A DNA stretch of 64,000 nucleotides from Candidatus Pampinifervens sinense (GCA_037927135.1 JAXSPP010000008.1:19281-83280), one strand, 5' to 3'. Numbered from the stretch's first letter, positions 44,270-60,435 are shown. A program made the numbers and translations. Notes: generated by a model from the sequence alone, not told the origin.

Positions 44270-44657
44270 ACCTTTCTACTAGCTCAAGTAAAGTCCTAGC
44301 CCTTTCCTTTACCCTTTCCCATTCTTCTATCTCTTCCATAGTTTGGGCTGTAGCAAGCTTCTTTACCGCCTGATCAAAGAGTTCCTTTTCCTTTCCTGGA
44401 TCTATCTCCCCTATATTGTAAGCTTCCTCTGCAAGGATTATGACCTTTTCCGGTGTGACATCCACAAAGCCGTAGGTTACTGCAATGCCATTTTCCATCT
44501 TGCCATCAAAGTAGACAAGCCCAGGCTTTAGCATGGTCATGAGATACATATGCTTTTCCAAAACTCCTATCTCACCCTCTACAGTAGGTATGTTTACAGA
44601 ATTTACCTCTTTAGAAAAGTGCAGGCCCTTGGGCGTGACTATCTCCACCTTAATCAT
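44256..44657 (-). CDS. atpC: F0F1 ATP synthase epsilon subunit
   Basis: EIVTP, GEIGVLEKH, GFVDV, ILAEEA. Confidence 0.92.
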   Translation of the reverse strand: MIKVEIVTPKGLHFSKEVNSVNIPTVEGEIGVLEKHMYLMTMLKPGLVYFDGKMENGIAVTYGFVDVTPEKVIILAEEAYNIGEIDPGKEKELFDQAVKKLATAQTMEEIEEWERVKERARTLLELVERFGRV

Positions 44658-45088
44658 GGCTTTAAAATTATACCATCCTTTTTTCTGCTATCTCTAAAGA
44701 GCTCATGGCATGCCATACAACCCTGTATCATCCATATGTAGGTTTGAAAAGCTTGATCTCTCTTACCTTCCTTTACAAACTTTATGACCTCCTCTGCACC
44801 ACCATGGATTTGTCTTTCAAAGGTAGGCATAAATTTTATAAACTCTTCTCTCTTTGATGGGTCTACGTATTTTAAAGGTCCTCCCTTTGGTGTAGGATGC
44901 TCAGCTATCTCCTTAGCTCCCTCAATTATCAACCAATCGTTGTTTAAAAGAAAGCCTTGAAGCATCTTTATAGCCGACATGTTTACCATCTGCATCACCT
45001 GTTTAAAGGTGAGATTACTTTCTTGCGTATGCTCATGGGCAAAACCAAGACTAAGGCTTAAGGCAAGGGCAAATCCCACTTTTCTCAT
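44654..45088 (-). CDS. Periplasmic monoheme cytochrome c with C-terminal CxxCH (class II / cytochrome c'-like)
   Basis: Signal peptide, helical body, CMACH near the C-terminus. Confidence 0.75.
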   Translation of the reverse strand: MRKVGFALALSLSLGFAHEHTQESNLTFKQVMQMVNMSAIKMLQGFLLNNDWLIIEGAKEIAEHPTPKGGPLKYVDPSKREEFIKFMPTFERQIHGGAEEVIKFVKEGKRDQAFQTYIWMIQGCMACHELFRDSRKKDGIILKP

Positions 45089-45089
45089 A

Positions 45090-45581
45090 CTACAACCTCC
45101 TTATCTTTATCTTCCAGTAGCTACCTTCATAGGCCACATACTCCCATCCCACCTTTTTGGGAAAGGCCATACTCATCTGAAAGTAAAGGGGTAAGGGGTC
45201 GTGGTCGTTTATGATGAAAAAGGCTTCGCCTTTGGCGGTTTTGGAAAACCTTTCCATCACCAAAGGGTGCCTTCTGCCATGCTCTATACTTCTTAAATCA
45301 ATGGTTTCACCATCTTGAAGGCTTTCCCCTCCAAAGGCTATCTCATATATTTCTGCTTCGCCTTCACACATAAAGCCAAATAACTCAGCCCTCTTCACAT
45401 AAAAGACTGCAGGAGCCTCCACCCTATCAAACCTCTGTCCCAGTATGTACCTTCCCGAGCCCTTTGAAAGGATATAAACCCTCTCATAGCCTACCGCCGA
45501 GGGCATAAGGGTGTCTTTTAAAAGCCTTAGATAAACGCCATCTAAACTAAAGCCCTTTCCTACTTCGGGTATTACCAGCAT
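45090..45581 (-). CDS. Cupin-like + DUF2249 domain protein
   Basis: C-terminal IDLR...RH...INDHDPLPLYFQ...W.I.I DUF2249 pattern. Confidence 0.75.
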   Translation of the reverse strand: MLVIPEVGKGFSLDGVYLRLLKDTLMPSAVGYERVYILSKGSGRYILGQRFDRVEAPAVFYVKRAELFGFMCEGEAEIYEIAFGGESLQDGETIDLRSIEHGRRHPLVMERFSKTAKGEAFFIINDHDPLPLYFQMSMAFPKKVGWEYVAYEGSYWKIKIRRL

Positions 45582-45646: not shown

Positions 45647-47584
45647 TCACCTTAGAACTACAAAGCTCCCAGTAGCATCATCGTAAGTTATAAGCACGCT
45701 CTCTTTTGGTTTTTGGGGTGTTTCAAACTCAATTTCTTTCACCTTCTCCTTATGGGCTATCTCTTCCAACCTTAGCCTTAGTTTTTTCCCTTTGGGTTCT
45801 AAAAAGATCTCATCATAGACAAAGAGTGAAGCATCCTTTCTTAGACCCCTTGGATAAAAGGTCTTTGAGTAAATCGTCTTTCCTTCTGAGATTATTTCCA
45901 CCTTAATAGGTGACCTCTCCTTTGCTATAGCCAGCTGTGTTTGCATATGCTTTAGACCCTCTTTTTTAACCATGGCTTCCTTGACAGGAGAGGACCTATA
46001 CTTAAAGTTTAGAACCACTGCAGATTTGTGGGTAGGATAAAAGGACATCTTATAAGTTGTTAGAGGATAGAAAAGAAAAGTTGGTATGGTAAGGATAAGT
46101 GTGGCTACTACGTAGTTTGTCTTTTCTAAAGCTATTATCTTGGGTTCTTTACCAGTTTTTTCTTCCTTCATAAACTCATCCACTTCCTTTTCAATGGGTT
46201 TTACGTAAGGAGCCTCCAGTATAAGCACCTTTCCTCCCAACACCCTTTTCCTCAAGATAGGTCTTCTTTCCCTCTTGTACCTTTCCTCCAACCATTTGTT
46301 GCCTTCCCTAAAGTAGCAGTCCTCATACTCACAGGAAACTAGGATAAGGCCTTCCAATCCCATATCAAGTAGCTCCTCTGCATAGAGGGTATTTACAGCA
46401 CCTATACAAGGCACTGTAAAGGAAAGAAGCCCTTTTCTCTCAGGAAGCTGGGCGCTAAAAGGACATCTAAAGGCTAAGTAAGAGGGCTTTTCTTTCCTCA
46501 CCCTCTCTATTATTTCCACAATAGGAAAAGTGGGAATGTCTATACTTTTTACACTGCAAGACCCTACACATATACCACAGCCGGCACACTTTCCTTCATT
46601 CAAAACAGCCTTTTTATCTCCATCAAAGCTTCTCATGGTTATGGCCTCATAAGGACAGTCTATATAACACTGCTCACATCCAGTGCATCTTTCAAGGTTT
46701 ATTTGTGCGGGAGGGTTTCTCCTTCCCTTTATGAGCCATGGGAAAACAAAAAGGAAGGTGAAGAATCCTAAGAATAGGATCCAATTGGCAGACATGGGAA
46801 GGTATTTAAGAAGTGGATAGCCAAAGAAATAAAACCAGTCAAGGCTCATCTCAAAGGGTAGCTTTTCTATGTAGGCTGGTGGGTCACTCTTTGCGGGGAA
46901 AAGTATGGAGAGGGCTATAAGAAGTAAGGTTATGGTTATATAAAGGAACTTGGGAGGTATGAGCCTTGGCCTTGCATTTCTCATCACATGAATCCAAAGG
47001 GTAAAGACTATGAGAATGGTGAGGGCTATGTGGGCAAAGAGGAGTATTCTGAAGAGGCCACTCAGATACTTTACATCTTTGCCAAGGAAAGCACTCATAA
47101 GAACATCTCCAAAGACTGGTAGAAAAGAAAAGAACTTAGCAGTCAGTATTCCAAGGAGCTGTGCCTTTGTGTCCCAAACTAGGATATAACCAGAGATGCC
47201 TATGGCTAAAAAGATGAGTAAAGTAGCGATCCCTGTCACCCAAGCCACCCATCTAAAGAGTCTAAACCTATCTGTTATGATCACGTGAATCATATGAGCG
47301 ATAGTGGTAAGAATCAAGGCATCAGATGAGTACCTATGTATGCCTCTCATTATGTTTCCTAAAAAGCTGTGTGATATAGCTTCCACCGAAGCATAGGAAG
47401 ATTTTGGATCTATGCTGTAAAAAAGGAAGAGGTAAACACCAGAGATTACATCTATGACAAGAAGGAATACAGCTATAGCTCCAAGGTGGTAGAGTGGGTT
47501 TAGCCTGGAGGAAAAAAACTTGCTTAAGGTGTAGGAGATCTTTTGGAAGGCTATGTAAAAGGGTTGTATGCTTATCACTTCCAT
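45647..47584 (-). CDS. Cytochrome b / 2x[4Fe-4S] / MvhD-like [2Fe-2S] multidomain membrane protein
   Basis: Cytochrome b His pairs (RGIHRY...AHMIH; FAHIA...WIHV); CTGCEQCYIDCP and CAGCGICVGSC; MvhD-like FRC...VPCIG...SCEYEDCYF; further C-terminal TM plus soluble domain. Confidence 0.82.
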   Translation of the reverse strand: MEVISIQPFYIAFQKISYTLSKFFSSRLNPLYHLGAIAVFLLVIDVISGVYLFLFYSIDPKSSYASVEAISHSFLGNIMRGIHRYSSDALILTTIAHMIHVIITDRFRLFRWVAWVTGIATLLIFLAIGISGYILVWDTKAQLLGILTAKFFSFLPVFGDVLMSAFLGKDVKYLSGLFRILLFAHIALTILIVFTLWIHVMRNARPRLIPPKFLYITITLLLIALSILFPAKSDPPAYIEKLPFEMSLDWFYFFGYPLLKYLPMSANWILFLGFFTFLFVFPWLIKGRRNPPAQINLERCTGCEQCYIDCPYEAITMRSFDGDKKAVLNEGKCAGCGICVGSCSVKSIDIPTFPIVEIIERVRKEKPSYLAFRCPFSAQLPERKGLLSFTVPCIGAVNTLYAEELLDMGLEGLILVSCEYEDCYFREGNKWLEERYKRERRPILRKRVLGGKVLILEAPYVKPIEKEVDEFMKEEKTGKEPKIIALEKTNYVVATLILTIPTFLFYPLTTYKMSFYPTHKSAVVLNFKYRSSPVKEAMVKKEGLKHMQTQLAIAKERSPIKVEIISEGKTIYSKTFYPRGLRKDASLFVYDEIFLEPKGKKLRLRLEEIAHKEKVKEIEFETPQKPKESVLITYDDATGSFVVLR

Positions 47585-47596
47585 CCTTTACCTCCT

Positions 47597-47614
47597 TGTA
47601 AATACATACTTACT
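47597..47614. promoter_or_regulatory. Operator-like palindrome copy (TGTAAAT-N4-ACTTACT)
   Basis: Immediately upstream of the AGGAGG SD of the cytochrome b fusion gene; matches copies at 47721 and 52130. Confidence 0.55.
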
Positions 47615-47685
47615 TTATTAATATAAGCCCTTTATTAAAATCTTATAGATTTTAATTTCACGTTATAATATGATAAATTAAATTC

Positions 47686-47741
47686 TTGACAATAATACCA
47701 TTTTATTTTAAACTTAATCCTGTAAGTAATCACTTACAGGA
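47686..47741 (+). promoter_or_regulatory. Sigma70-type promoter with overlapping perfect palindrome
   Basis: TTGACA(47686)-N17-TAAACT(47709); TCCTGTAAGT-AATC-ACTTACAGGA (47718-47741) covers the predicted +1 and the start of the SD. Confidence 0.7.
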
Positions 47742-47749
47742 GGTAGAAC

Positions 47750-47926
47750 ATGGAGGAGAAAAAAAAGACTCCTTTCCTTCAGCTGGTCATGGACGATTTT
47801 ATGCTTCTCTTCCTCATAGGGGTTACCATCTATGCCGTCTTTTACCTTATCTGGGGCCTTATGGAACTGGCATGGCTCTCGCCCATACCGGAGGAGTTAA
47901 AAGCATCACTTTTGGGAGGTAAGTGA
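47750..47926 (+). CDS. 58-aa single-TM small subunit of the heme-copper operon (subunit IIa-like)
   Basis: Below ORF cutoff; AGGAGG SD; MEEKKKTPFLQLVMDDFMLLFLIGVTIYAVFYLIWGLMELAWLSPIPEELKASLLGGK; stop 1 nt before subunit II ATG. Confidence 0.8.
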   Translation: MEEKKKTPFLQLVMDDFMLLFLIGVTIYAVFYLIWGLMELAWLSPIPEELKASLLGGK

Positions 47927-47927
47927 C

Positions 47928-48458
47928 ATGAGCCTGCTACCACCTGAAGAAGGATGGTACTTTAAGAAGGTAGCAAAGGATGAGAAGATGTGGATAGCCC
48001 TTGCCTTAGTGGTATGCCTTATCCTCTTTTTCTGGATGATTGTCTGGCACATCTACGGAAAGCAAAACCCCTCCTTTACCACCTACAGAACAACTCCTCA
48101 GGAGTTTAACGCTCTGGCTACAGCCTTTATAGAAAAGTACAAAGTAGGTGAGATGAACGGAATACCTGTGGTTGAACCGCCACCCAACAGCGATGTTTTC
48201 CTTGTGGCCAAGATGTGGAGATGGGAGCCCGTTTTGGTGCTCAAAAAGGGCCAAGAGTACAGGTTCCACATATCTTCTTTAGATCTCTTACATGGCTTTT
48301 CTTTGCAACCTGTCAACATGAACTTTATGGTCTATCCGGGATATGACTATGTGCTTACCTTTAGGCCTACCTCTGCTGGGGAGTTTGCCATAGTGTGCAA
48401 TGAGTTTTGCGGTATAGGACATCACATGATGATAGGAAAGATCATAGTCAAAGAATAA
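47928..48458 (+). CDS. Heme-copper oxidoreductase subunit II with CuA site
   Basis: Single TM; DLLHGF and CNEFCGIGHHMM CuA ligands (B-family-like architecture). Confidence 0.9.
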   Translation: MSLLPPEEGWYFKKVAKDEKMWIALALVVCLILFFWMIVWHIYGKQNPSFTTYRTTPQEFNALATAFIEKYKVGEMNGIPVVEPPPNSDVFLVAKMWRWEPVLVLKKGQEYRFHISSLDLLHGFSLQPVNMNFMVYPGYDYVLTFRPTSAGEFAIVCNEFCGIGHHMMIGKIIVKE

Positions 48459-48469
48459 GGAGGTAAGCC

Positions 48470-50137
48470 ATGTTTAGGATGTGTGATATTACAGGCCTAA
48501 AGGTGGACTTAAATGCCGAAAAGCTTATAAAGCTTAACGCTGTTATGGCCGTTGTCTCCCTTCTTATCGGTGTGATCGGAGCCCTCCTTTTGGTGCTCAC
48601 AAGATGGCAGGTGGTGCATCTTTTGCCGGTGGATTGGTACTATAGAGTGCTCACCCTTCATGGCCTCAACGCCTTAATATTCTGGATAGTCTTCTTTGAG
48701 ATAGCAGGCCTCTACTTTGGTTCTACCATAGTGCTAAACTCTAGGATGTCTTCACCAAAGCTTGGATGGTTTGCCTTCATCCTTATGGTCCTAGGCTTTC
48801 TCCTTGTCAACTACACCATACTGACTGGAAAGGCTGACGTTTTGATGACCTCTTACGCTCCTTTGCAGGCACACCCAGTTTATTATCTAGGCATTATCCT
48901 TTTTGCAGTTGGTGCCCTCATAGGTGTTCTTCTTTTCTTTGCAAACCTTATGATAGCTAGGAAAGAAGGGACATATGGAGATTCCCTACCTCTGTTTACT
49001 TACGGTCTTATGGCAGCTGCCATAATAGCCTTTATAACCCTTGCCACTGGCGCCATAATATATATTCCCACCTTCCTTTGGTCTTTGGGAATCATAAAGA
49101 GCATAGATGCGGGTGTTTATAAGCTCGTCTGGTGGGGTTTTGGACATTCCTCACAGCAGATAAATGTAACGGCTATGATAGCCGTGTGGTATCTTGGAGC
49201 TTTTCTTACGGTTGGTGGTACATCCATCAATGAAAAGGTAAGCAGGATAGCCTTTCTCCTTTACATTATAGGTATAAACGTAGCTTCAGCACATCATCTT
49301 TTAGTAGACCCAGGGCCTAGCCCCGTTTGGAAAGTCTTTAACACAAGCTACATCATGTACTTGGCAGTCCTTGCCTCTATGATACATGCCTTTGCTGTTC
49401 CATCCGCCATTGAATCGGCCCAAAGGAGAAGAGGCTTTACAAAGGGTCTTTTTGACTGGCTCAAAAACGCTCCATGGGGCAACCCAGCCTTTTCGGCCAC
49501 ATTCCTTTCTATCATCATCTTTGGCTTTATAGGTGGTATAACGGGTGTAGTAAACGGTATGGAACAAACCAACATAATAGCCCACAATACCCTTTCCATA
49601 CCAGGACACTTTAAAGGAACTGTGGTGGGTGGAACTACCTTAGCCTTCATGGGTATTACCTACTACCTTATACCCCTTGTGTTTAGAAAGCGCATCTCCT
49701 TCTTTGGTCTTGCCAAGCTACAGCCTTGGGTTTTTGGCATAGGGATAGCCATATTGGCTGTATCCATGTACATACTTGGAGCCTTTGGTGTTCCAAGAAG
49801 ACACTACGATATTACCTTCTCCGGAGGACCCTTTACCTATACTTTTAACCCAGCTACAGACTTCTTCTGGGCCCTCTTTGCCATAGGTGGCCTAATGGCT
49901 GTTATAGGTGCCTTAATGTGGATACTTATAGTGGTCTTTTCTGTCTTCTTTGGTGCTCCTTTGAGAGGTCCTCAGGATATGCAACTTCAAATAGCCTCAC
50001 CCCCACCACCAGCCAAAGAAAACCATGGCTTTGAAGCTCCAGGAACTCTTGCCCTTACCCTTCTCTTCATGGCCACCTTCATCATATTCCTACTTCTCAA
50101 CTGGGGATGGCTCGCAGCCATGTGGGAGGTAAGGTAA
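48470..50137 (+). CDS. Heme-copper superfamily subunit I, eNOR-like (putative nitric oxide reductase)
   Basis: H64 (LHG); helix VI GH226SSQQ230 with Gln where O2 reductases have the cross-linked Tyr; H275H276; helix X GH380FK382; PRR loop. Confidence 0.8.
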   Translation: MFRMCDITGLKVDLNAEKLIKLNAVMAVVSLLIGVIGALLLVLTRWQVVHLLPVDWYYRVLTLHGLNALIFWIVFFEIAGLYFGSTIVLNSRMSSPKLGWFAFILMVLGFLLVNYTILTGKADVLMTSYAPLQAHPVYYLGIILFAVGALIGVLLFFANLMIARKEGTYGDSLPLFTYGLMAAAIIAFITLATGAIIYIPTFLWSLGIIKSIDAGVYKLVWWGFGHSSQQINVTAMIAVWYLGAFLTVGGTSINEKVSRIAFLLYIIGINVASAHHLLVDPGPSPVWKVFNTSYIMYLAVLASMIHAFAVPSAIESAQRRRGFTKGLFDWLKNAPWGNPAFSATFLSIIIFGFIGGITGVVNGMEQTNIIAHNTLSIPGHFKGTVVGGTTLAFMGITYYLIPLVFRKRISFFGLAKLQPWVFGIGIAILAVSMYILGAFGVPRRHYDITFSGGPFTYTFNPATDFFWALFAIGGLMAVIGALMWILIVVFSVFFGAPLRGPQDMQLQIASPPPPAKENHGFEAPGTLALTLLFMATFIIFLLLNWGWLAAMWEVR

Positions 50138-51399
50138 TGCTCTTCTTCCTCTCCCTTTCTCTCTTTTCACTCCTTCTTGCTGGCATCTTCGGGCTCCTCA
50201 TAGCCCTCACAAGGGCTCCCCTCTTTAAACTCCTTGATTCACCCCTTCTCTTTTACCACTTTTTAGTGGGCCATGTGACCTTTTCTATTACAGTCTGGCT
50301 TATGACCTTTGGTATGGCCTTTTGGCACTACAAGGAGGGCAGGAAGGGGAAGGTAGCACCTCCAGCCACCCTACTCGGTATGCTTTTCCTTTCCCTCTCC
50401 TGCCTTTTTCCCTATGGACAGCCCCAACTCAACAATTATATACCAGTCATAGAGAATCCTATCTTCTACGCAGGCCTTACTCTTTTCTTCTTGGGCTTTT
50501 CTTCAGAGGTACTTTTTAGACTACCGAAAGCTGTAAAAAGCCTTTTGACCCAAGATACACAAACACAACTACTGTCCTTATCCATTATCTTTGGCCTTTT
50601 GACAGTGCTGTCCCTTCTTCTATCCTTGCTCCTTGTAAAAGGTGAAGGAAAGCTCTACTTTGAAAGGCTCTTTTGGATACCTGGACACCTTCAGCAGTTT
50701 ATGTACACAGCCCTTATGCTATGCGTATGGCATGAGCTATTGAAGAAAAACTCCGGAGTGCAAATATCAAGCCCCATTATAAGCTCAGCAAACCTCTTTA
50801 TGCTCCTTTTCTCCTTGACCCTCTTTTATGGCTACCTTACAGATATGCTCTCCCATGGCTTTAGGCTTCTTGTGGTCCTCTCCTTTGGAATAGGCTTGGG
50901 TGTGCCCGTCTTTGTACACACCTTCTATGTGCTAAGGAATATGAGGATAAACAAGGATGTGTCTACCTTGTCCTTGGTCTCTTCCATGCTTGTGTACTAT
51001 GTAGGCGAGTTTATAGCCTACGGTGGGATGCAGAGCGACCTTAGAATACCGGCCCATTATCATGGTGTAGTTTCCGGAGTAACCATAGCCTTTATGGGCC
51101 TTACCTACTATATGCTAAAGGAAAGGCTTGGTTTTGTAAGCTGGGAGAAGTTTGCCAAGCTTCAGCCTGTCATATTTGGTCTTGGTATAAACCTTTTGGT
51201 GATAGGTTTTTACATTGCTGGCCTTTTGGGAGCACCAAGAAAAACTTATGGCTTTGAGTATGTGCAAAAGGCTGAGGTACTTCTTGCTTTGAACGTGATG
51301 GGTATGGGAAGCTTGCTCGCCGTAGCTGGCGGACTTCTCTTCCTCTTTTACTCCCTTGCATCCCTTCTGAGGGTATACAAACATGGTAAAGGTTCTTAG
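50137..51399 (+). CDS. Degenerate heme-copper subunit-I paralogue (polytopic membrane protein)
   Basis: VGHVTFS, FWIPGHLQQF, IPAHYHG, GAPRK; no HH motif; ATG 50137 overlaps the upstream TAA. Confidence 0.72.
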   Translation: MLFFLSLSLFSLLLAGIFGLLIALTRAPLFKLLDSPLLFYHFLVGHVTFSITVWLMTFGMAFWHYKEGRKGKVAPPATLLGMLFLSLSCLFPYGQPQLNNYIPVIENPIFYAGLTLFFLGFSSEVLFRLPKAVKSLLTQDTQTQLLSLSIIFGLLTVLSLLLSLLLVKGEGKLYFERLFWIPGHLQQFMYTALMLCVWHELLKKNSGVQISSPIISSANLFMLLFSLTLFYGYLTDMLSHGFRLLVVLSFGIGLGVPVFVHTFYVLRNMRINKDVSTLSLVSSMLVYYVGEFIAYGGMQSDLRIPAHYHGVVSGVTIAFMGLTYYMLKERLGFVSWEKFAKLQPVIFGLGINLLVIGFYIAGLLGAPRKTYGFEYVQKAEVLLALNVMGMGSLLAVAGGLLFLFYSLASLLRVYKHGKGS

Positions 51400-52114
51400 T
51401 CTCCTTTTTATACTCCTTTCCCTTTGTTTCTCCAACCTTTTGCCCGATGAAAAGAAAACCATCGGCACCTATATGCCTAACATAAGGCTTCAGGACCATG
51501 AGGGGAAGGTCTATAGCCTAAAGGATCTTTCGCAGGGTAAGGTTCTCATAATAAATCCCATATATACCAAATGCTCCTCCGCTTGTCCTGTAATGACAGA
51601 AGAGCTAAAGAAGGCTATAAAAGGCCTTGAGGAGGATGTAAAGGTCCTTTCCATAACCTTTGACCCACGGGATAGTATATTGGACCTAAAAAGGTTTAGG
51701 GAAGTTCATAGTCTTCCAAACAACTGGCTTGTGGCAAGGAGCGATGAAGTGGATAAGCTTTTAAAGGCTATAGACTACAAGTACAGGTATGATGAGAGGC
51801 TTAAAGAGTTTGAACATCCCAACCTCTATGTGGTCATTACACCTTCCGGAAAGATATCAAGATACATATACGGCGTGAGTCCAAGGCTTAGAGACCTAAG
51901 GCTCTCAGTGCTTGAGGCAAAAAAAGAAGACGCAAGCCTTACCCCTGTGGAGAGCTTCTGGCTTAGATGCTTTAGATACAACATAGAGACGGGCACTTAT
52001 CAGATAGACTGGTTTTTCATCTTTGATGTGATGGGAGGTCTTCTTACCTTCATTGTAGTTCCTCTCTTGGTTTGGGGAAGACAGCTTTGGGTCCTATTAA
52101 AGATTTTTCGGTAA
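51383..52114 (+). CDS. SCO1/SenC family copper chaperone
   Basis: YTKCSSACP (CxxxC), SITFDP, FEHP; C-terminal TM. Confidence 0.88.
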   Translation: MVKVLSLLFILLSLCFSNLLPDEKKTIGTYMPNIRLQDHEGKVYSLKDLSQGKVLIINPIYTKCSSACPVMTEELKKAIKGLEEDVKVLSITFDPRDSILDLKRFREVHSLPNNWLVARSDEVDKLLKAIDYKYRYDERLKEFEHPNLYVVITPSGKISRYIYGVSPRLRDLRLSVLEAKKEDASLTPVESFWLRCFRYNIETGTYQIDWFFIFDVMGGLLTFIVVPLLVWGRQLWVLLKIFR

Positions 52115-52171: not shown

Positions 52172-52186
52172 CAAGGAGGTGTGGAC

Positions 52187-53836
52187 ATGAAAAAGTACCT
52201 GCTTAGTGGGATCTTTGGAATGGCAACAGTCTTTGGCCTTTTCACTGTGGTGCCTTCCTTGGCGCAGCAAAAGGAGGATCTCCCCGCCCTCTCTCAAGAG
52301 GAGATGAAGAGAGCAGCCCAGATCTACTTTGACAGGTGTGCTGGATGCCATGGAACTCTTAGAAAAGGTGCCACTGGACCAAACCTATTGCCCGAAAAGA
52401 CAAGGAAGATGGGTGTGGAGACGCTCAAAACCTTTATAACCTATGGAACGCCCGGTGGTATGCCAGACTGGGGAAGGCAGGGATTGCTTAGCCCTCAGGA
52501 GATTGAGCTTTTGGCCAAGTTTTTACTCCATGAGCCACCACCCCCACCAGAGATGTCCTTGGAAGACATGAAGAAGCATTGGAAGGTGTATGTTCCACCG
52601 GAAAAGAGGCCAAAAAAACCCGAACACAACAGAAACTGGCAGAACTTTATGGCTGTCATACTTAGAGATGCTGGAAAGGTTGCCATAATTGACGGTGATA
52701 CAAAGGAACTCGTGAACATAGTGGACACTGGCTTTGCAGTCCATATAGTAAGGTATTCAGCCTCCGGTCGTTATCTGTACACCATAGGAAGGGATGGAAA
52801 GGCTACAATAGTGGACCTGTGGATGAAAAAGCCAGATACGGTTGCTGAAGTAAAAGCATGCTATGACGCAAGGTCTATAGACTCATCCAAATACAAAGGT
52901 CCAAAGGGAGACTTTCTAGATAAGTATGCCATCATAGGATGCTATTGGCCTCCTCATATGGTAATACTGGACGGGCAAACTTTGGAACCTCTAAAGATAA
53001 TTTCAACGAGCTCTTATACCTATGATACTAATGAGTTTGTAAGGGAGGCAAGGGTAGCATCCATAGTGGCTTCCCACCATGACCCAGAGTGGGTGGTAAA
53101 CATAAAGGAGGCTGGACAGATATGGCTTGTGGACTACTCTAACATACGCGCCCCTAGGATAACCATGATAGAGGCAGAGAGGTTCCTACACGATGGCGGT
53201 TGGGATGCCTCAAAGAGATACTTCTTGGTTGCTGCAAACTTCAGAGACACCATATCCATAGTGGATACTAAGGAAAAGAAGCTTGTCAAGAATGTAAAGG
53301 TGGGCAGAATACCACACCCAGGAAGGGGTGCCAACATAGACCATCCCAAGTATGGACCCATATGGTGCACAGGACACCTTGGAGACAACACCATCCAATG
53401 CATTGGCACAGACCCCGTCAGGTATCCCCAGTATGCCTTTAAGGTAGTTGCCAAGTTTGAAATGCCCGGTGAGGGTGGAGGAAACCTATTTATAAAGACT
53501 CATCCCAAATCCCCCCATATTTGGGTAGACAGGCCTCTAAATAACGACCCTAAACTGCAAAGGTCTATCTTTGTCTTTGACAAATACACCTTTAAGCTAA
53601 AGGCTCAGATAGAGATACCAGAAAAGTATGCTGGAAGGGCTGTCCATCTTGAGTACAACAAGAACGGTGATGAAGTGTGGGTCTCTGTTTGGGGTAAAAA
53701 GAACGAGCCACACAAACAAGCCATACTTGTTTACGATGACAAAACCCTAAAGCTCAAGCATGAGATCACAGGAGACTGGGTGGTAACTCCCACTGGACAC
53801 TTCAACGTCTACAACACCATGAAGGACATCTACTGA
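52187..53836 (+). CDS. nirS: Cytochrome cd1 nitrite reductase
   Basis: Signal peptide; CAGCHGTLRKGATG heme c; GFAVH, FLHDGG, PHPGRG, LFIKTHP, TGHFNVYNT; AAGGAGG SD fits ATG 52187. Confidence 0.96.
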   Translation: MKKYLLSGIFGMATVFGLFTVVPSLAQQKEDLPALSQEEMKRAAQIYFDRCAGCHGTLRKGATGPNLLPEKTRKMGVETLKTFITYGTPGGMPDWGRQGLLSPQEIELLAKFLLHEPPPPPEMSLEDMKKHWKVYVPPEKRPKKPEHNRNWQNFMAVILRDAGKVAIIDGDTKELVNIVDTGFAVHIVRYSASGRYLYTIGRDGKATIVDLWMKKPDTVAEVKACYDARSIDSSKYKGPKGDFLDKYAIIGCYWPPHMVILDGQTLEPLKIISTSSYTYDTNEFVREARVASIVASHHDPEWVVNIKEAGQIWLVDYSNIRAPRITMIEAERFLHDGGWDASKRYFLVAANFRDTISIVDTKEKKLVKNVKVGRIPHPGRGANIDHPKYGPIWCTGHLGDNTIQCIGTDPVRYPQYAFKVVAKFEMPGEGGGNLFIKTHPKSPHIWVDRPLNNDPKLQRSIFVFDKYTFKLKAQIEIPEKYAGRAVHLEYNKNGDEVWVSVWGKKNEPHKQAILVYDDKTLKLKHEITGDWVVTPTGHFNVYNTMKDIY

Positions 53837-55449
53837 TGAGATACCTACTTCTTCCCCTACTCCTCCTTTCCCTTTCCTTTGGGGTAGGGGAGGGGCTTTA
53901 TCAAAAGTATTGTTCTTCTTGTCATGGTGAAGACAGGCTTGGGAGGGGTGCACCTCTCCTCTTTCCCCCCTTTTTTATACCAAAGTCTGAAGAAAGAATA
54001 TACCAGGTGATAAAAAAGGGCACCATTGGAATGCCAAGCTTTGAGCATCTAAAAGAAGATGAGATAAGGGCCATAGTTGAGTTTATAAAAGGGCCTGTGG
54101 ATGAAAATAAGTTAAGGTGGAGCAGAGAAGACATAGAGAAGAGCCAAAGCCTATCTCATGTGGAAAAGGTAAGGATAAACAACCTGAGGGGCCTTACTGT
54201 AATGGTGGAGAGGGGGAAAGGTCTCCTTTGGGTGATGGAGGGCTTGGAGGTCCTCAGCAAGGTCCCTGTATCTTACGTGCATGGTGGGGTAAAGTTTTCT
54301 AAGGATGGAGAAGTTTACATACCGTCAAGAAGTGGATGGATAAGCAAGTACTCGCCGGAGAAGGGAGAGATAAAAAAGGTAAGAGCCTGTATATACCTGA
54401 GGAACATAGCTCTCTCTTCTGATGGGAAAGTTCTTGTAGCCTCTTGCTGGCTTCCTCCCTCCCTGGTCTTTTTTGACAAGGACCTAAGACTTATACAGAT
54501 AAAAGAGGTAAAAGGCAAGATAAACGCAGTTTATGAGCTTCGCAACGGCAAAGGCTTTATCTTTACCTTCAGAGACAGGCCCTATGTGGGTCTTTTGAAC
54601 AAGAATGGAAGAATAACCTACAAAGAGCTAGATATCAGCTTGGAAGACTTTACCATAGACCCCCTTGAAGAGTACCTTATAGGTAGCACAAAAGACGGCC
54701 TAAGGATATACTCTTTGAAGGACCTAAAGCTTGTAAAGGAGCTAAAGGCCCTTGGCCTTCCTCACCTTGCTTCTTCCTACTTTTGGTACTCAAAGGGTGA
54801 GTTTTACTTTGCCACCCCACTCCTTGGAAAGCCCCTCCTGTCTATATGGAAGGCTTATAAATGGGAGCATGTAAAGGACATTCCTCTCAAAAGCTTTGGC
54901 TTTTTGGCAAGAAGCAACTATGGCACACCTTATGTATGGGTGGATGAATCCTCGGACACCTTGGCCCTTTTGGACAAAAGAAGCTTAGAGCTAATAAGAA
55001 TAAGGCCAGTGGAAGGCAAAAGGGCTACGCATACAGAGTTTTCCTCAGATGGCAGGCTTGCCTACGTGAGCCTTGAGGATGCTTTAATAATCTATGATGG
55101 AGTGAGCCTCAAAAAGCTAAGAGAATTCCCTGCAAGTATGCCCGCTGGAAAGTATAACTTCTTTAACAAAAGTAGAATCTTTGAAGCTTCCCAGCTTGGC
55201 CATCAGGTTTTTATGGAAAAGTGTTGGGGATGCCACCATACCACAGAGCAAGCCTTTGGACCTCCACTAAAAGGGTCTGCCAAGAAAAGGGATAAGGCCC
55301 TCATAATGGCCCAGATACTTGACCCGCAGAATACCCATAAGCTCTTGGGATATTCAAGGAACGTCATGCCACGTATAGACCTAAGAGAAGAGGAGCTAAA
55401 GGCCCTCATAAGCTTTATGGAGGCGTTAAAGGATGGCTGGATGGATTGA
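53836..55449 (+). CDS. nirN: NirN-like dihydro-heme d1 dehydrogenase with extra C-terminal cytochrome c domain
   Basis: N-terminal CSSCHGEDRLG, HGGVKFS, GLPHL, THTEFS, PAGKYN; second CWGCH...MP domain at the C-terminus. Confidence 0.8.
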   Translation: MRYLLLPLLLLSLSFGVGEGLYQKYCSSCHGEDRLGRGAPLLFPPFFIPKSEERIYQVIKKGTIGMPSFEHLKEDEIRAIVEFIKGPVDENKLRWSREDIEKSQSLSHVEKVRINNLRGLTVMVERGKGLLWVMEGLEVLSKVPVSYVHGGVKFSKDGEVYIPSRSGWISKYSPEKGEIKKVRACIYLRNIALSSDGKVLVASCWLPPSLVFFDKDLRLIQIKEVKGKINAVYELRNGKGFIFTFRDRPYVGLLNKNGRITYKELDISLEDFTIDPLEEYLIGSTKDGLRIYSLKDLKLVKELKALGLPHLASSYFWYSKGEFYFATPLLGKPLLSIWKAYKWEHVKDIPLKSFGFLARSNYGTPYVWVDESSDTLALLDKRSLELIRIRPVEGKRATHTEFSSDGRLAYVSLEDALIIYDGVSLKKLREFPASMPAGKYNFFNKSRIFEASQLGHQVFMEKCWGCHHTTEQAFGPPLKGSAKKRDKALIMAQILDPQNTHKLLGYSRNVMPRIDLREEELKALISFMEALKDGWMD

Positions 55450-55921
55450 AAGCATATCAAAGATAAGGAGGCCCCATTTGGGTGAGGATGTGCCAGTGTT
55501 GGTGTTTAGAGCCTTTAGGGTATTCACGGGCATGTATTTGGAGGATACGGTGGGCCATAAGGGAGCTATAACCCTTGTGCAGAACGCAGGAAGAGAGTTT
55601 GGAAAAGAGGTGGGCAAAAGGCTAAGACATGAGGATTTAGACAAATACATCATGAATGTGGCGGACTTTGTCAAAGACCTACGAGTGGGCCTCTTAATAC
55701 CAATTGAAAGGAGTGAGGAGAGGATCGTGGTAGCTCTTGATGAGTGTATTACATGCTCCGGCATGCCAAACATAGGAAAGAAGATATGCCACTTTGAGGC
55801 TGGCTTTGTGGCTGGTATAGTGGAAAGCTACCTAAACAAAAGGGTAAGGGTTTATGAAAGCAAGTGCAACGCCCATGGAGACAACGTATGCGAAGTGGTG
55901 GTGGAGCTCAACTATGCTTAG
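55433..55921 (+). CDS. Stand-alone V4R domain protein
   Basis: ECITCSG...ICHFEAGFVAG...ESKC...GD..CE V4R pattern. Confidence 0.8.
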   Translation: MAGWIESISKIRRPHLGEDVPVLVFRAFRVFTGMYLEDTVGHKGAITLVQNAGREFGKEVGKRLRHEDLDKYIMNVADFVKDLRVGLLIPIERSEERIVVALDECITCSGMPNIGKKICHFEAGFVAGIVESYLNKRVRVYESKCNAHGDNVCEVVVELNYA

Positions 55922-57002
55922 GATGACGGAGTACTTAAGGGAAGTGTTGGAAGGGAAAAAGGTAAAAGCTTTTGGAGACAGTGTTATACTCATATGGAAC
56001 CTCACCAACAGATGCAACCTCTACTGCAAGCACTGCTATTCCTCTGCAAAGGACATAAGGTCCTATGAGCTCACTTCAGAAGAGGCAACAAACCTTGTAA
56101 AAAGGCTACCCCATATCAAGGTAAAGTTTGCTATCCTCTCCGGCGGTGAGCCTCTGTTAAGGGAGGACCTCTTTCACATAGCAAAACTTTTAAGAGAGCA
56201 AGGCATAAGGACCTACCTTTCTACCAACGGCCTACTTGTTAGAGAGTTTATAAGGGATATAAAAGAGCATTTTGATTATGTTGGGATAAGCATAGACGGA
56301 GAGCCACAGGTCCATGACCTCTTTAGGGGCAAGAGAGGCGCCTTTGAAGAGTCTCTTAATGCCATAAGGCTATGCCTTGAGGAGGGCATAAGGGTTGGAC
56401 TTCGCTTTACCCTCGCTCCCCAAACGGTCAAGAGTCTGCCCTTCATATTCAACCTTGTAGAAAGGGAAGGTATTCCCAAGATTTACATATCTCACCTTGT
56501 CTACTCTGGAAGGGCCAAAAGGCTAACGGACCTGGAAAAGAAGGAGTACAGAAAGGTTGTCAAGTTTATAATTGACAAGGCCTTTGAGTATGTGGAAAGG
56601 GGAATACCCATAGACATAGTCACCGGAAACAACGAGGCGGATGCAGTCCTTCTATATGAAGAATTTTCTAAAAGGTATGCAGACCTATCTGACAGGCTTT
56701 ATGAGAGGCTCTTGCTTTGGGGAGGAAACCAGGCGGGCGTGAGGCTCATAAACATAGACCACCTTGGAAGTGTAAAGCCAGACCCCTTCTTCTTCCACAG
56801 CGTAGGCAATGTGAGGGATGAGGACCTTGTGAAGATATGGCAGGGTAATGGACTACTTAGCTTTCTAAGAGAGAGGCCAAGGAGGCTAAAGGGAAGGTGC
56901 GGAGGATGTAAATACATAGACATATGCAACGGGAACTCAAGGGCAAGGGCCTACGCGGTCCTTGGCGACTGCAGGGAGGAGGATCCAGCATGCTACTTAT
57001 AG
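55914..57002 (+). CDS. nirJ: Heme d1 biosynthesis radical SAM protein
   Basis: WNLTNRCNLYCKHCY, SGGEPL, ISHLVYSGR, GNNEADA, SPASM Cys cluster; ATG 55914. Confidence 0.88.
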   Translation: MLRMTEYLREVLEGKKVKAFGDSVILIWNLTNRCNLYCKHCYSSAKDIRSYELTSEEATNLVKRLPHIKVKFAILSGGEPLLREDLFHIAKLLREQGIRTYLSTNGLLVREFIRDIKEHFDYVGISIDGEPQVHDLFRGKRGAFEESLNAIRLCLEEGIRVGLRFTLAPQTVKSLPFIFNLVEREGIPKIYISHLVYSGRAKRLTDLEKKEYRKVVKFIIDKAFEYVERGIPIDIVTGNNEADAVLLYEEFSKRYADLSDRLYERLLLWGGNQAGVRLINIDHLGSVKPDPFFFHSVGNVRDEDLVKIWQGNGLLSFLRERPRRLKGRCGGCKYIDICNGNSRARAYAVLGDCREEDPACYL

Positions 57003-58024
57003 TGCTTTTGCTCCTGCCAATCTTTGCCTTCTGTGAAAAGCTCTATGTGGTAGAGAGGGAAAGGGGAAAATTGGCGGTTATAGAGGATGGGAGGCTGAAG
57101 GGTGAGATAGGGGGGCTTGGAAATCTAAACCATGCAACGGTGAAGTTTTACAAGGGTTTTGCCTATGTGATAAGCAGGGATGGCTTCCTTTCAAAGATAG
57201 ACCCAGGGGAGGACAAGCTTGTAAAAAGGGTAAAGGTGGGCAACAGCGGTATAGGCCTTGACTTCTTCAAAGGGTATGTGCTTGTGGCCAACTATGACCC
57301 GGATAGTGTGGTGCTATTGGATATGGACCTAAACCTTGTTAAAACCATAAAAACAGACTCAAGGAATGTGGGTATAAAGGCTTACTCTTCTGGCTTTGTT
57401 TTTGCCCTCATGGACAGGGATGAGGTGTGGGTTGTGGAGGGAGAAAAGATAAAAAGGTTAAAGGATGTTGGGAAGATGCCCTTTGATGCTTTGCTATACG
57501 AAGATAAATACCTTGTGGGCTTTTTTGGAGAGCCCTCCCTTGGCATCTTAGACTTAAAGAAAGGTGAATACAAAAAGATAGCTCTAAGTTCTAACGGAGA
57601 GGCTGTTTTTAAGATACCTCACTTTGGCACATGGGGTGTGGTGGATGGAATGGCCTATGTGCCGGCGGTGGGAGAAAGGAAGCTATACCTATTGAACTTA
57701 AAAGAACTAAGGCTGGAGGGAAGTATAGACCTTCCTGGCCTTCCAGTATTTGTAGTGGCTTCTCCCGACAAAAGGCTTTTGGTCGTCAACTTCAGCGGTG
57801 ATAGGGAAGACTACATAGCCCTTGTGGATGTATCCGAAAGAAAGGTGATAAGGGAGGTAAAGGCTGGCAAAAGGATAATGCATATGCGCTTTTCCAAGGA
57901 TGGCAAAAGGCTATATATCTCTTCCTACTTTGATTCTAAGCTAAGGGTTTTGAGCCTTCCAGACCTAAGGCCTATTCAAGAAGTGGATGTCCCAAACCCA
58001 TCGGGCATTTTTGTTTTGCCATAG
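56990..58024 (+). CDS. nirF: Heme d1 biosynthesis beta-propeller protein
   Basis: VVERE, LNHA, SRDG, MPFDA, KIPH, GLPVF, HMRF, PSGIF; ATG 56990. Confidence 0.85.
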   Translation: MLLIVLLLLPIFAFCEKLYVVERERGKLAVIEDGRLKGEIGGLGNLNHATVKFYKGFAYVISRDGFLSKIDPGEDKLVKRVKVGNSGIGLDFFKGYVLVANYDPDSVVLLDMDLNLVKTIKTDSRNVGIKAYSSGFVFALMDRDEVWVVEGEKIKRLKDVGKMPFDALLYEDKYLVGFFGEPSLGILDLKKGEYKKIALSSNGEAVFKIPHFGTWGVVDGMAYVPAVGERKLYLLNLKELRLEGSIDLPGLPVFVVASPDKRLLVVNFSGDREDYIALVDVSERKVIREVKAGKRIMHMRFSKDGKRLYISSYFDSKLRVLSLPDLRPIQEVDVPNPSGIFVLP

Positions 58025-58034
58025 GAGGTGTGCT

Positions 58035-58787
58035 ATGGGTAAAGTATACCTTGTGGGCGCAGGACCGGGAGACCCAGAGCTTTTAACGCTAAAAGCTTTG
58101 AGATTAATAAAGTCCGCAGACGTTATCCTCTACGACAGGCTCATAAACCAAGAGATACTTCTTTTTGCCAAGCCAGACTGTGAGCTTATCTATGTAGGAA
58201 AAGAAGATGGAAAACATACCATAGAACAAGAGAAGATAAACGAGCTTTTGCTTGAGTATGCTCACACAAAGGAAGTGGTGGTAAGGCTAAAAGGAGGAGA
58301 CCCCTTCATCTTTGGAAGGGGAGGAGAAGAGGCCCTCTTTTTGGCAGAGCATGGCATAGAGTTTGAAGTAGTTCCGGGAGTGAGTTCCTTTTATTCAGTG
58401 CCAGCCTATGCTGGCATACCGATAACCTTCAGAGGCATATCTTCATCCTTTGCCGTAATAACGGGACATGAGGACCCAAGAAAGGAAAAATCAAGCATAG
58501 ATTGGGAGAGTCTAAAAGGTATAAACACCTTGATAGTTCTAATGGGGGTCTCAAGGAGGAAGGAGATAGCCAGAAAGCTAATAGAGGTAGGAAGAGATCC
58601 AAAGGAGCCTGTGGCCTTTATAGAGAATGGTACCACAGAGAGGCAGAGGGTGATTCTAACAGACCTTTATGAGCTTTCCACAAACCCGCCTGAGGTAAAC
58701 CCACCTGCCATAATGGTGGTGGGAAGTGTGGTAAGGCTCAAAGAAAAGCTCTCTTGGTATGAGGCTACCTTACATAACACTCCTTGA
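58035..58787 (+). CDS. nirE: Uroporphyrinogen-III C-methyltransferase
   Basis: VGAGPGDPELLT, RLKGGDPFIFGRGGEE; position in the nir operon; ATG 58035. Confidence 0.9.
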   Translation: MGKVYLVGAGPGDPELLTLKALRLIKSADVILYDRLINQEILLFAKPDCELIYVGKEDGKHTIEQEKINELLLEYAHTKEVVVRLKGGDPFIFGRGGEEALFLAEHGIEFEVVPGVSSFYSVPAYAGIPITFRGISSSFAVITGHEDPRKEKSSIDWESLKGINTLIVLMGVSRRKEIARKLIEVGRDPKEPVAFIENGTTERQRVILTDLYELSTNPPEVNPPAIMVVGSVVRLKEKLSWYEATLHNTP

Positions 58788-59442: not shown

Positions 59443-60435
59443 CTAAACCATCCTCTCATACCATCTGTAAAATTCTTCTGAGAAGTAGCTTATCCTCTTC
59501 TTTTTGAACTCTCTTGTGGAGAAAAGAAGTGCATAGTCCTTTAGGCCAAACCCTTGGCTTATGCTTTTTACAAACCTTTTTACCTCTTCCTCCTCTTTTC
59601 CATGTATCATTGCAAAGAGGTTATAATCCCAGCCAAACCTCTCATAGCAATGGGACACACTCTTAAAGCCTGCCAAATATCTGCCTACCTCTTCTATCAT
59701 ATCTTCTTTGACCTTCCAAACTGTCATGGCGTTGGCACTAAATCCTACCCTTCTGTGATAAAGGATGGCGCTTATTCTCCTTAGAATACCCCTTTCTTTG
59801 AACTCCAATAGCTTTTCAATAAGCTCATCCTCTTTCATATTTAGCCTTTTGGCATAATAATCAAAAGGCCTGCTTACCAAGGGCATATCCTCCTGCGTAA
59901 TTCTTACTATGAGTTTTTCTTCCTCAGTTAAAGGTCTATAGTCATAATTTTTTAGGCTTACCTCCTCCCTTTCCATGAGGGATTCATAGCTCAGCCTCAC
60001 CCCTATCTTAAAGACCCTTTTGGCCCTGAGTATCTTATAATCCAAAGCATCTACCTTCTCAGCCATATACCTTACCGTGTCTTCTAGGCTCACACCCACA
60101 TCAGGGGGTACCGCTATGGTAAACCACAGGTTGAACTCATGTGTTCTTTCATAGTTATGGCTCACTCCAGGATGGGTGTTTATAAAGGATGCGGCCTCTT
60201 CTATGCGTTCAGGCTTTACCTTAAAGGCAACCAAAGAAGAATCATAGCCCAGCATCCTTGTATCGTATATAGGTGCTATCTGCCTTACAACCTTATCTTC
60301 TTTAAGCCTTTCTATGGCTTTTATAACCTCATCCTCTCCTATGCCAAGCCTTTCGCCTATCTCCAAAAAGGGCCTTTTTACAATAGGGATCTCCTCTTGA
60401 AGGGTTTTTAGAAGACCCTCAAGGCTCTCTATCAT
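59443..60435 (-). CDS. nirDL: Fused siroheme decarboxylase NirDL (AhbA/AhbB-like)
   Basis: Two Lrp/AsnC-like repeats: GVSHNYER...FNLWF and HRRVGFSANAM...VSHCYER. Confidence 0.88.
   Translation of the reverse strand: MIESLEGLLKTLQEEIPIVKRPFLEIGERLGIGEDEVIKAIERLKEDKVVRQIAPIYDTRMLGYDSSLVAFKVKPERIEEAASFINTHPGVSHNYERTHEFNLWFTIAVPPDVGVSLEDTVRYMAEKVDALDYKILRAKRVFKIGVRLSYESLMEREEVSLKNYDYRPLTEEEKLIVRITQEDMPLVSRPFDYYAKRLNMKEDELIEKLLEFKERGILRRISAILYHRRVGFSANAMTVWKVKEDMIEEVGRYLAGFKSVSHCYERFGWDYNLFAMIHGKEEEEVKRFVKSISQGFGLKDYALLFSTREFKKKRISYFSEEFYRWYERMV

Follow-up and report, generated by a model that had tools for sequence, protein, structure and literature searches.

A probable eNOR-type nitric oxide reductase with lysine at a heme-ligand position in the nir gene cluster of Candidatus Pampinifervens sinense

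The eNOR-type nitric oxide reductases (the eNOR family of Hemp and Gennis 2008) are defined in the literature by Gln in place of the active-site Tyr, a CuA-containing subunit II, and a B-type K-channel, and section 2.7.1 of PMC8756737 uses the Gln as its in-group criterion for eNOR. The enzyme of Rhodothermus marinus DSM 4252 yields nitrous oxide (N2O) from nitric oxide (NO), which it reduces at 0.68 per s at 25 C; it does not reduce O2 and has heme As in both sites (PMC11214002, section 6). Its residues are given in Dataset S1 of that paper as Q-245, S-318, H-321, Y-256, and E-(II)21, and its Dataset S4 holds the entry 'ENOR WP_012962803.1 Hydrogenobacter_thermophilus'. The paper also states that some eNORs ligate the low-spin heme by His and Lys (Murali et al. 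2024, PNAS, PMC11214002; the same sentence is in the 2021 preprint). Here we describe a 64,000-nucleotide stretch of DNA from Candidatus Pampinifervens sinense (GCA_037927135.1, JAXSPP010000008.1:19281-83280; hereafter the window), in which the open reading frame (ORF) at 48470-50137 very probably encodes subunit I of an eNOR-type enzyme, a CuA enzyme that branched off from the B family within the heme-copper oxidoreductases, with an activity assigned by homology. Because the eNOR listing of H. thermophilus and the statement on His/Lys ligation are already in print, the Lys variant is known, as is the family assignment, and the finding is correct but not new.

Active-site residues of subunit I and family assignment

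An earlier note on the window had read HSSQQ at residues 226-230, the pair H275H276, and H380-F-K382 in the translated ORF, and all of these are where the note placed them. The ORF is preceded by a ribosome site, AAGGAGGT, which is graded strong. When the PDB was searched by phmmer with subunit I, the best match was subunit I of the Thermus thermophilus ba3 oxidase (1EHK and its mutants, E about 4e-47) and the second was 7DEG (E 2e-42), and residues were mapped from the resulting ba3 alignment. As the note had supposed, Q230 falls on the cross-linked Tyr237, and K382 takes the place of His386, which in ba3 is the second ligand to the low-spin heme b. H226 aligns with the first CuB His, H275 and H276 with the CuB His-His pair, H380 with the heme a3 ligand, and H64 with the helix II (first) ligand of the low-spin heme; five of the six canonical metal-ligand His residues are kept, and the sixth is Lys382. 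An AlphaFold2 model of subunit I, made from a 43-row alignment, has a predicted local distance difference test (pLDDT) score of 90.4 and finds its best structural match in 7DEG (template-modeling [TM] score 0.83), with ba3 at 0.80.

The K-channel and subunit II point in the same direction. Q230, S303, H306, and Y241 correspond to the eNOR column of Dataset S1 at a constant offset of 15 and are invariant in our alignments. H306 lies at the position of ba3 Thr312, where His parts the eNOR column from those of ba3, bNOR, and sNOR, which have Thr, and Y241 corresponds to the ba3 K-channel Tyr248. Subunit II aligns with its ba3 counterpart (E 3e-16) and retains all five CuA ligands; H122, C157, C161, H165, and M168, together with Glu19, are invariant in 74 of 74 aligned subunit II sequences, and Glu19 is set beside E-(II)21 of R. 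marinus without an alignment. Four residues past the first CuB His, where the B-family O2 reductases have Tyr, subunit I has Gln230, and the genome's own B-type oxidase (L003) reads HPVVY at helix VI. The Glu that is the fourth FeB ligand of cNOR, qNOR, and nNOR is likewise replaced by Gln230, and the accompanying subunit II is of the CuA type, not a cytochrome c, although cNOR and qNOR share the proposed reaction and the absence of a cross-linked Tyr.

The closest described systems can be set against the locus residue by residue. The ba3 oxidase of T. thermophilus (1EHK, 3S8F) and the Aquifex-type B-family enzyme 7DEG resemble it in fold, in a CuA subunit II, in a single K-type channel, and in having a small one-helix gene upstream of subunit II, although no sequence similarity of the small upstream ORF in the window to PDB chains was detected; relative to ba3, Tyr237 is replaced by Gln, His386 by Lys, and Thr312 by His, and the two fall in separate clades. 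The bNOR (CuANOR) of Bacillus azotoformans, which we take to carry CuA likewise, and sNOR are also B-family-related NO reductases without the Tyr, but they have Asn (N-243, N-245) where subunit I has Gln230, and Thr instead of His at the ba3 T312 position. CuA-subunit homologues are encoded with eNOR, sNOR, nNOR, and gNOR (PMC11214002). The proposed nNOR is B-family-derived with one low-spin heme ligand replaced (His/Met), which the paper likens to the His/Lys of eNOR, but its active site resembles that of cNOR, with Glu where the Tyr would be, and its replacement ligand is Met rather than Lys (PMC11214002). The R. marinus eNOR shares with the locus the Gln at the Tyr site, the Ser/His/Tyr K-channel with the subunit II Glu, the CuA subunit II, and the association with nir genes (PMC11214002); the operon described here additionally has two genes, designated HCO2 and SCO, and it departs from the canonical eNOR ligand set in having Lys, not His, as the putative second low-spin heme ligand. 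A protein of H. thermophilus, WP_340690361.1, is 90% identical to subunit I, and the HCO2 orthologue of H. thermophilus strain TK-6 is WP_012962802.1, an accession adjacent to WP_012962803.1 of Dataset S4.

The earlier note had placed the ORF in the B-family-derived eNOR group because Gln replaces the Tyr and subunit II is of the CuA kind; the K-channel set, the CuA ligands, the clade (see below), and the nirS context agree with this. Its expectation that such a protein would be mis-annotated as an oxidase is also borne out, as public sources give this one the name 'cytochrome c oxidase' or 'cbb3-type oxidase'.

Conservation and phylogeny of the Gln and Lys signatures

Conservation was assessed in two sets: an alignment of subunit I with its 120 best homologues (121 sequences), and 80 loci in named genome records carrying eNOR-type genes. 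Q229, Q230, H226, H275, H276, and H380 are invariant in the alignment (121/121), and H64 is kept in 120 of 121, with one gap. Residue 382 is Lys in 114 sequences and His in seven, and Gly383 goes with Lys382 (114/121 each); the same contrast of Lys-Gly with His-Ala is seen in the locus set. Gln-Gln is present in the window and in all 80 loci, where H-F-K-G is found in 11 (eight Aquificaceae/Aquificota, one Cytophagaceae, one Thermodesulfovibrionales, and one unclassified) and H-F-H in 69, mainly Gemmatimonadota. Y241 and Y265 are conserved in both sets. Two base changes would be needed to turn the Lys codon (AAA) into His (CAY), and likewise the Gln codon (CAG) into Tyr (TAY). The two-base distance, the 114 homologues with Lys, and their membership of one clade within eNOR argue that Lys382 is not a sequencing error, and from these comparisons we conclude that Q230 and K382 are neither chance nor error; the earlier note had conceded that a K382 not shared by homologues would undo its reading, but a whole clade carries it.

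The phylogeny check proposed in the earlier note was made with a quick IQ-TREE analysis with SH-aLRT (Shimodaira-Hasegawa-like approximate likelihood ratio test) branch support. A search of 1.84 billion cluster representatives gave 1310 matches at E <= 0.001, the best 150 of which were listed; the tree drew on the 30 listed matches of at least 450 amino acids (aa), minus P0264, P0271, and P0412 (gapped or misaligned at the motif columns), to which were added eight best-homologue proteins, nine locus proteins, and the genome's three other oxidases, to a total of 48 rows labeled by their own motif residues alone. A branch with SH-aLRT 99 unites the 20 Gln-Gln rows, and the 16 B-type Tyr rows, the genome's own B-type oxidase among them, group elsewhere, so that the Gln-Gln proteins are set apart from Tyr-bearing B-type oxidases as the note anticipated, in a tree whose rows do not include the published reference set. 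The 10 Lys rows form a single clade (SH-aLRT 99) nested among the His-type eNORs, and this pattern fits one His-to-Lys change inside eNOR.

Two further groups in the tree deserve mention. P0265, P0267, P0270, and P0284, which read H-x-x-Q-Y, stand next to the Gln-Gln clade as its nearest relatives outside and keep the eNOR-type K-channel His; by their motifs they may represent a sister group of eNOR that bears the Tyr and possibly reduces O2. Separately, P0329, P0348, P0365, and P0370 form a clade with Tyr aligned at the H275 and H380 positions (HVYHY, Y-x-H), a ligand set that would be unusual, provided that the alignment is right.

Proposed catalytic route and competing explanations

We infer NO-reductase activity for ORF 48470-50137 from its homology to the R. 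marinus enzyme, and we likewise infer ligation of the low-spin heme by Lys382, which metal occupies the non-heme site, and which hemes are bound. In the proposed working, NirS, whose gene lies 2 kb downstream on the same strand, would make NO in the periplasm, and CuA in subunit II would take electrons from a donor in the periplasm and hand them to the low-spin heme, whose ligands would be His64 and, most probably, Lys382. From there the electrons would reach the high-spin heme (His380) and the non-heme metal (His226/His275/His276), where two NO would be converted to N2O. O2 reduction would be excluded, since a site with Gln230 in place of the cross-linked Tyr would be unable to supply the fourth electron. 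Protons would probably be drawn from the cytoplasm through a K-channel analogue formed by Glu19 of subunit II and Ser303, His306, and Tyr241, and with such uptake turnover may be electrogenic.

That the enzyme is still a ba3-type oxygen reductase, in which the lost Tyr is made good by one on a different helix, as in cbb3, or by a redox-active residue of another kind, is extremely improbable. Its closest solved structures are indeed ba3 oxidases, and Y241 and Y265 are conserved, but Y241 is the counterpart of the ba3 K-channel Tyr, and Y265 precedes H275 by ten residues, a spacing that helix geometry puts at about 15 A along the helix. We take the Tyr of cbb3 oxidases to sit six residues before the helix VII His pair, as in the P. 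stutzeri structure, and the residue there is I269; the compensating Tyr from another helix that the earlier note had named as grounds for abandoning its reading thus does not apply at the cbb3-type position. The four close relatives with H-x-x-Q-Y retain Tyr, but the Gln-Gln clade stands apart from the Tyr clades, the gene lies within a nirS operon, and the R. marinus eNOR is without O2 reduction (PMC11214002). Other nitrogen-oxide chemistry in place of N2O formation, for example NO dismutation or N2O reduction, also seems very improbable to us. No NosZ reaches the cut-off in the genome, which would leave any N2O-consuming activity unaccounted for, but many denitrifiers stop at N2O. Further heme-copper families have been proposed for NO dismutation and N2O reduction, but these relate to qNOR and cNOR and not to the B family, and the product of the sole characterized eNOR is N2O (PMC11214002).

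A third alternative is that Lys382 does not serve as an axial ligand in the eNOR-type enzyme. The heme might instead be five-coordinate, ligated by water or a different residue, or of an altered type, with the Lys serving charge balance or propionate binding. Gly383 co-varies with Lys382, showing a remodeling of the local packing; we nevertheless regard a non-axial Lys as unlikely. It lies exactly at the ligand position in both the ba3 and the profile alignments, it is fixed throughout one clade, and the partner ligand His64 is retained as noted above. Lys is moreover an established heme ligand in other proteins, and His/Lys ligation in eNORs has been stated in print (PMC11214002).

Several points nonetheless weigh against the assignment as a whole. 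The 90%-identical H. thermophilus protein has a different accession from the one in Dataset S4, so that the link between them consists of the species name and the adjacent accession numbers. The R. marinus eNOR is absent among the best 120 homologues listed, in each of two such lists, and we found no biochemical work on a Lys-type eNOR, a variant that has one sentence in Murali 2024. The tree was made by a quick method with motif-derived labels and without published reference sequences. Finally, nothing in the genome attains the family cut-off for NosZ (of either type) or for NarG, and the pathway is incomplete as detected.

The nir cluster, accessory genes and the rest of the genome

The gene order of the locus is small ORF, subunit II, subunit I, HCO2, SCO, nirS, a nirN-like gene, and heme d1 genes (Table 1), with a gene for a cytochrome b/Fe-S/FlpD fusion diverging from the operon. 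When the 1.55-Mb genome (G000) was scanned for Pfam COX1, six matches were found: two A-type, one B-type, the eNOR, and two HCO2-type, with no further heme-copper match able to be a cNOR or a qNOR. The scans for NosZ and NarG gave only weak matches, to the CuA domains of oxidase subunits II and to a 1116-aa molybdoenzyme-like ORF, and since no NosZ reaches the cut-off, N2O may be the end product. Also present in the genome are a ctaB-type gene of the UbiA family and an ORF resembling CtaA (L006), the latter scoring 28.3 bits against a Pfam cut-off of 29.9.

Table 1. Features of the eNOR locus and its surroundings. Positions are those of the window except for the second HCO2 copy, which is in L006; codon rows are within subunit I.
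Feature	Position	Strand	Remarks
144-aa protein	44654-45088	-	signal-peptide-like N-terminus; CxxCH (CMACH) near C-terminus; no Pfam family
DUF2249 protein	45090-45581	-	adjoins the 144-aa protein
Cytochrome b (b6-like)/two [4Fe-4S]/FlpD-like fusion	45647-47584	-	645 aa; Cytochrome_B 5.4e-16, Fer4 5.1e-09, FlpD 1.2e-06
Small ORF	47750-47926	+	58 aa; one predicted transmembrane helix; AGGAGG 6 nt upstream; stop 1 nt before subunit II ATG
eNOR subunit II (putative)	47928-48458	+	one transmembrane helix and CuA cupredoxin domain; Pfam COX2 1.2e-05
eNOR subunit I (putative)	48470-50137	+	555 aa; Pfam COX1 E 7.6e-68 over the whole length
Predicted key residues of subunit I			low-spin heme H64/K382; high-spin heme H380; non-heme metal H226/H275/H276; Q230 at Tyr site; K-channel S303/H306/Y241
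Codons H226-S-S-Q-Q230, helix VI	49145-49159	+	Q230 = CAG
Codons H275-H276	49292-49297	+	aligned with the CuB His-His pair
Codons H380-F-K382, helix X	49607-49615	+	K382 = AAA
HCO2	50137-51399	+	420 aa; 12 helices; paralogue with heme-copper-oxidase fold; Pfam COX1 4.7e-19
SCO1/SenC-type copper chaperone (SCO)	51383-52114	+	CxxxC; Pfam SCO1-SenC 4.9e-11; overlaps HCO2 end by 17 nt
Cytochrome cd1 nitrite reductase NirS	52181-53836	+	Pfam Cytochrom_D1 1.9e-128 and a cytochrome c domain
NirN-like	53836-55449	+	cytochrome c, d1-type propeller, cytochrome c
V4R-domain protein	55433-55921	+	Pfam 2.2e-18; between nirN-like and nirJ
NirJ	55854-57002		heme d1 gene
NirF-like gene	56924-58024		heme d1 gene
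cobA	57987-58787		heme d1 gene
Siroheme decarboxylase	59443-60435	-	heme d1 gene
HCO2, second copy	L006 1411-2742	-	gene order ctaA-like, ctaB, HCO2

It is possible, although we hold it only tentatively, that the eNOR operon extends beyond the two published subunits, with the 58-aa peptide as a third subunit, HCO2 as a factor, undescribed so far, that handles heme a/o for heme-copper enzymes or assists in their assembly (or else as another heme protein that binds NO), and the cytochrome b/Fe-S/FlpD fusion as a dedicated electron input. No literature treatment of the small ORF, of HCO2, or of the cytochrome b fusion was found by term look-ups in PMC11214002, by a full-text search, or in passages of PMC3578206 and PMC8239418.

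A profile built from 50 of the small-ORF peptides matches 72 of the 76 loci with at least 200 nt upstream of subunit II, including 23 loci outside the profile's building set, and a reverse-strand control gave 0; D15, W35, and G36 are invariant. The peptide has no Pfam family and no PDB match save an unrelated chain at E 0.84, and on these grounds it was rejected as a sequence homologue of ba3 subunit IIa. It is a candidate third eNOR subunit, IIa-like in position and topology only.

The HCO2 start codon overlaps the stop of subunit I by 1 nt (TAATG), with GGGAGG upstream. Its AlphaFold2 model (pLDDT 91.9) has TM scores of 0.75 to 0.80 to A- and B-type subunit I, and profile-profile alignment with the eNOR/B-type set gives E 2.4e-54. 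In that alignment H46, H184, H307, and H309 map onto H64, H226, H380, and K382, Q187 onto Q229, and F188 onto Q230, and H275/H276 fall on a Gly and a gap, so that the family retains the two heme sites while lacking the metal site made up of three His; across 115 HCO2 sequences H46, H184, Q187, H307-Y-H309, and R368-K369 are invariant or nearly so. We considered whether HCO2 is the NorB of a cNOR, but it has no PDB match (phmmer, E up to 10), no NCBIfam family at E <= 1e-5, and a Foldseek top 50 consisting entirely of A- and B-family subunit I chains, and we rejected this identity. We note that Murali 2024 (Datasets S6/S8) gives CNOR = 1 for H. thermophilus, and also for a Thermocrinis genome without other tabled denitrification genes; the genome of the window, which is another organism than those, carries the two HCO2-type genes but nothing NorB-like.

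HCO2 is linked genetically with eNOR, with the genes for heme O and heme A synthase through the order ctaA-ctaB-HCO2, and with SCO. Some bacteria have SCO and HCO2 fused in a single polypeptide, as in P0150 (674 aa, from a Cytophagaceae metagenome-assembled genome) and P0162 (672 aa). Among 80 metagenome loci with an HCO2 relative, at least 47 have a ctaB homologue, at least 30 a ctaA-like gene, at least 23 SCO, and at least 18 an eNOR subunit I (at 45% identity or more), nine of the Lys type and nine of the His type, these counts being floors because many of the loci are short. HCO2 adjoins 10 of the 11 Lys-type and none of the 69 His-type eNORs in the 80 genome loci, but it cannot be a companion of the Lys type only, as the metagenome loci show it directly after nine His-type and nine Lys-type genes. 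Prediction of a complex of eNOR subunit I with HCO2 scored 0.00 without controls, a non-answer that carries no weight for or against binding.

A homologue of the cytochrome b fusion adjoins eNOR in 68 of the 80 genome loci, across phyla, and is present in 48 of the 50 eNOR loci whose flanks extend 3.5 kb or more on each side; the fusion may be an electron-input module. The domain-annotation table in the appendix of PMC8756737 lists RME88945.1 with cytochrome b6, DMSOR-beta-like, and FlpD domains, in a passage that offers no interpretation.

Two small genes lie just beyond the fusion, one for the DUF2249 protein and one for the 144-aa protein, whose CxxCH stands near the C-terminus as, we presume, in class II cytochromes c. 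The V4R-domain protein has weak similarity to the MsvR regulator and may be a small-molecule-binding regulator of the cluster. The sequence TTGAT-N4-ATCAA, which we take as the FNR/DNR-type box consensus, has no match in the divergent promoter (47585-47927), and the whole window has 26 matches against 38.7 expected.

The novelty of the finding itself is low, and its value lies in the corrected annotation and in three accessory-gene leads on enzyme assembly and electron supply. Cultivable thermophilic relatives in Hydrogenobacter would offer a practical source for electron paramagnetic resonance, magnetic circular dichroism, and redox study of a His/Lys heme in a heme-copper enzyme. For the organism, correct recognition of the enzyme alters how its nitrogen metabolism is read, namely as nitrite reduction by way of NO to N2O in a genome without a detected NosZ, and eNOR-type enzymes more broadly are a large, mis-annotated part of the N2O-producing capacity in nature.

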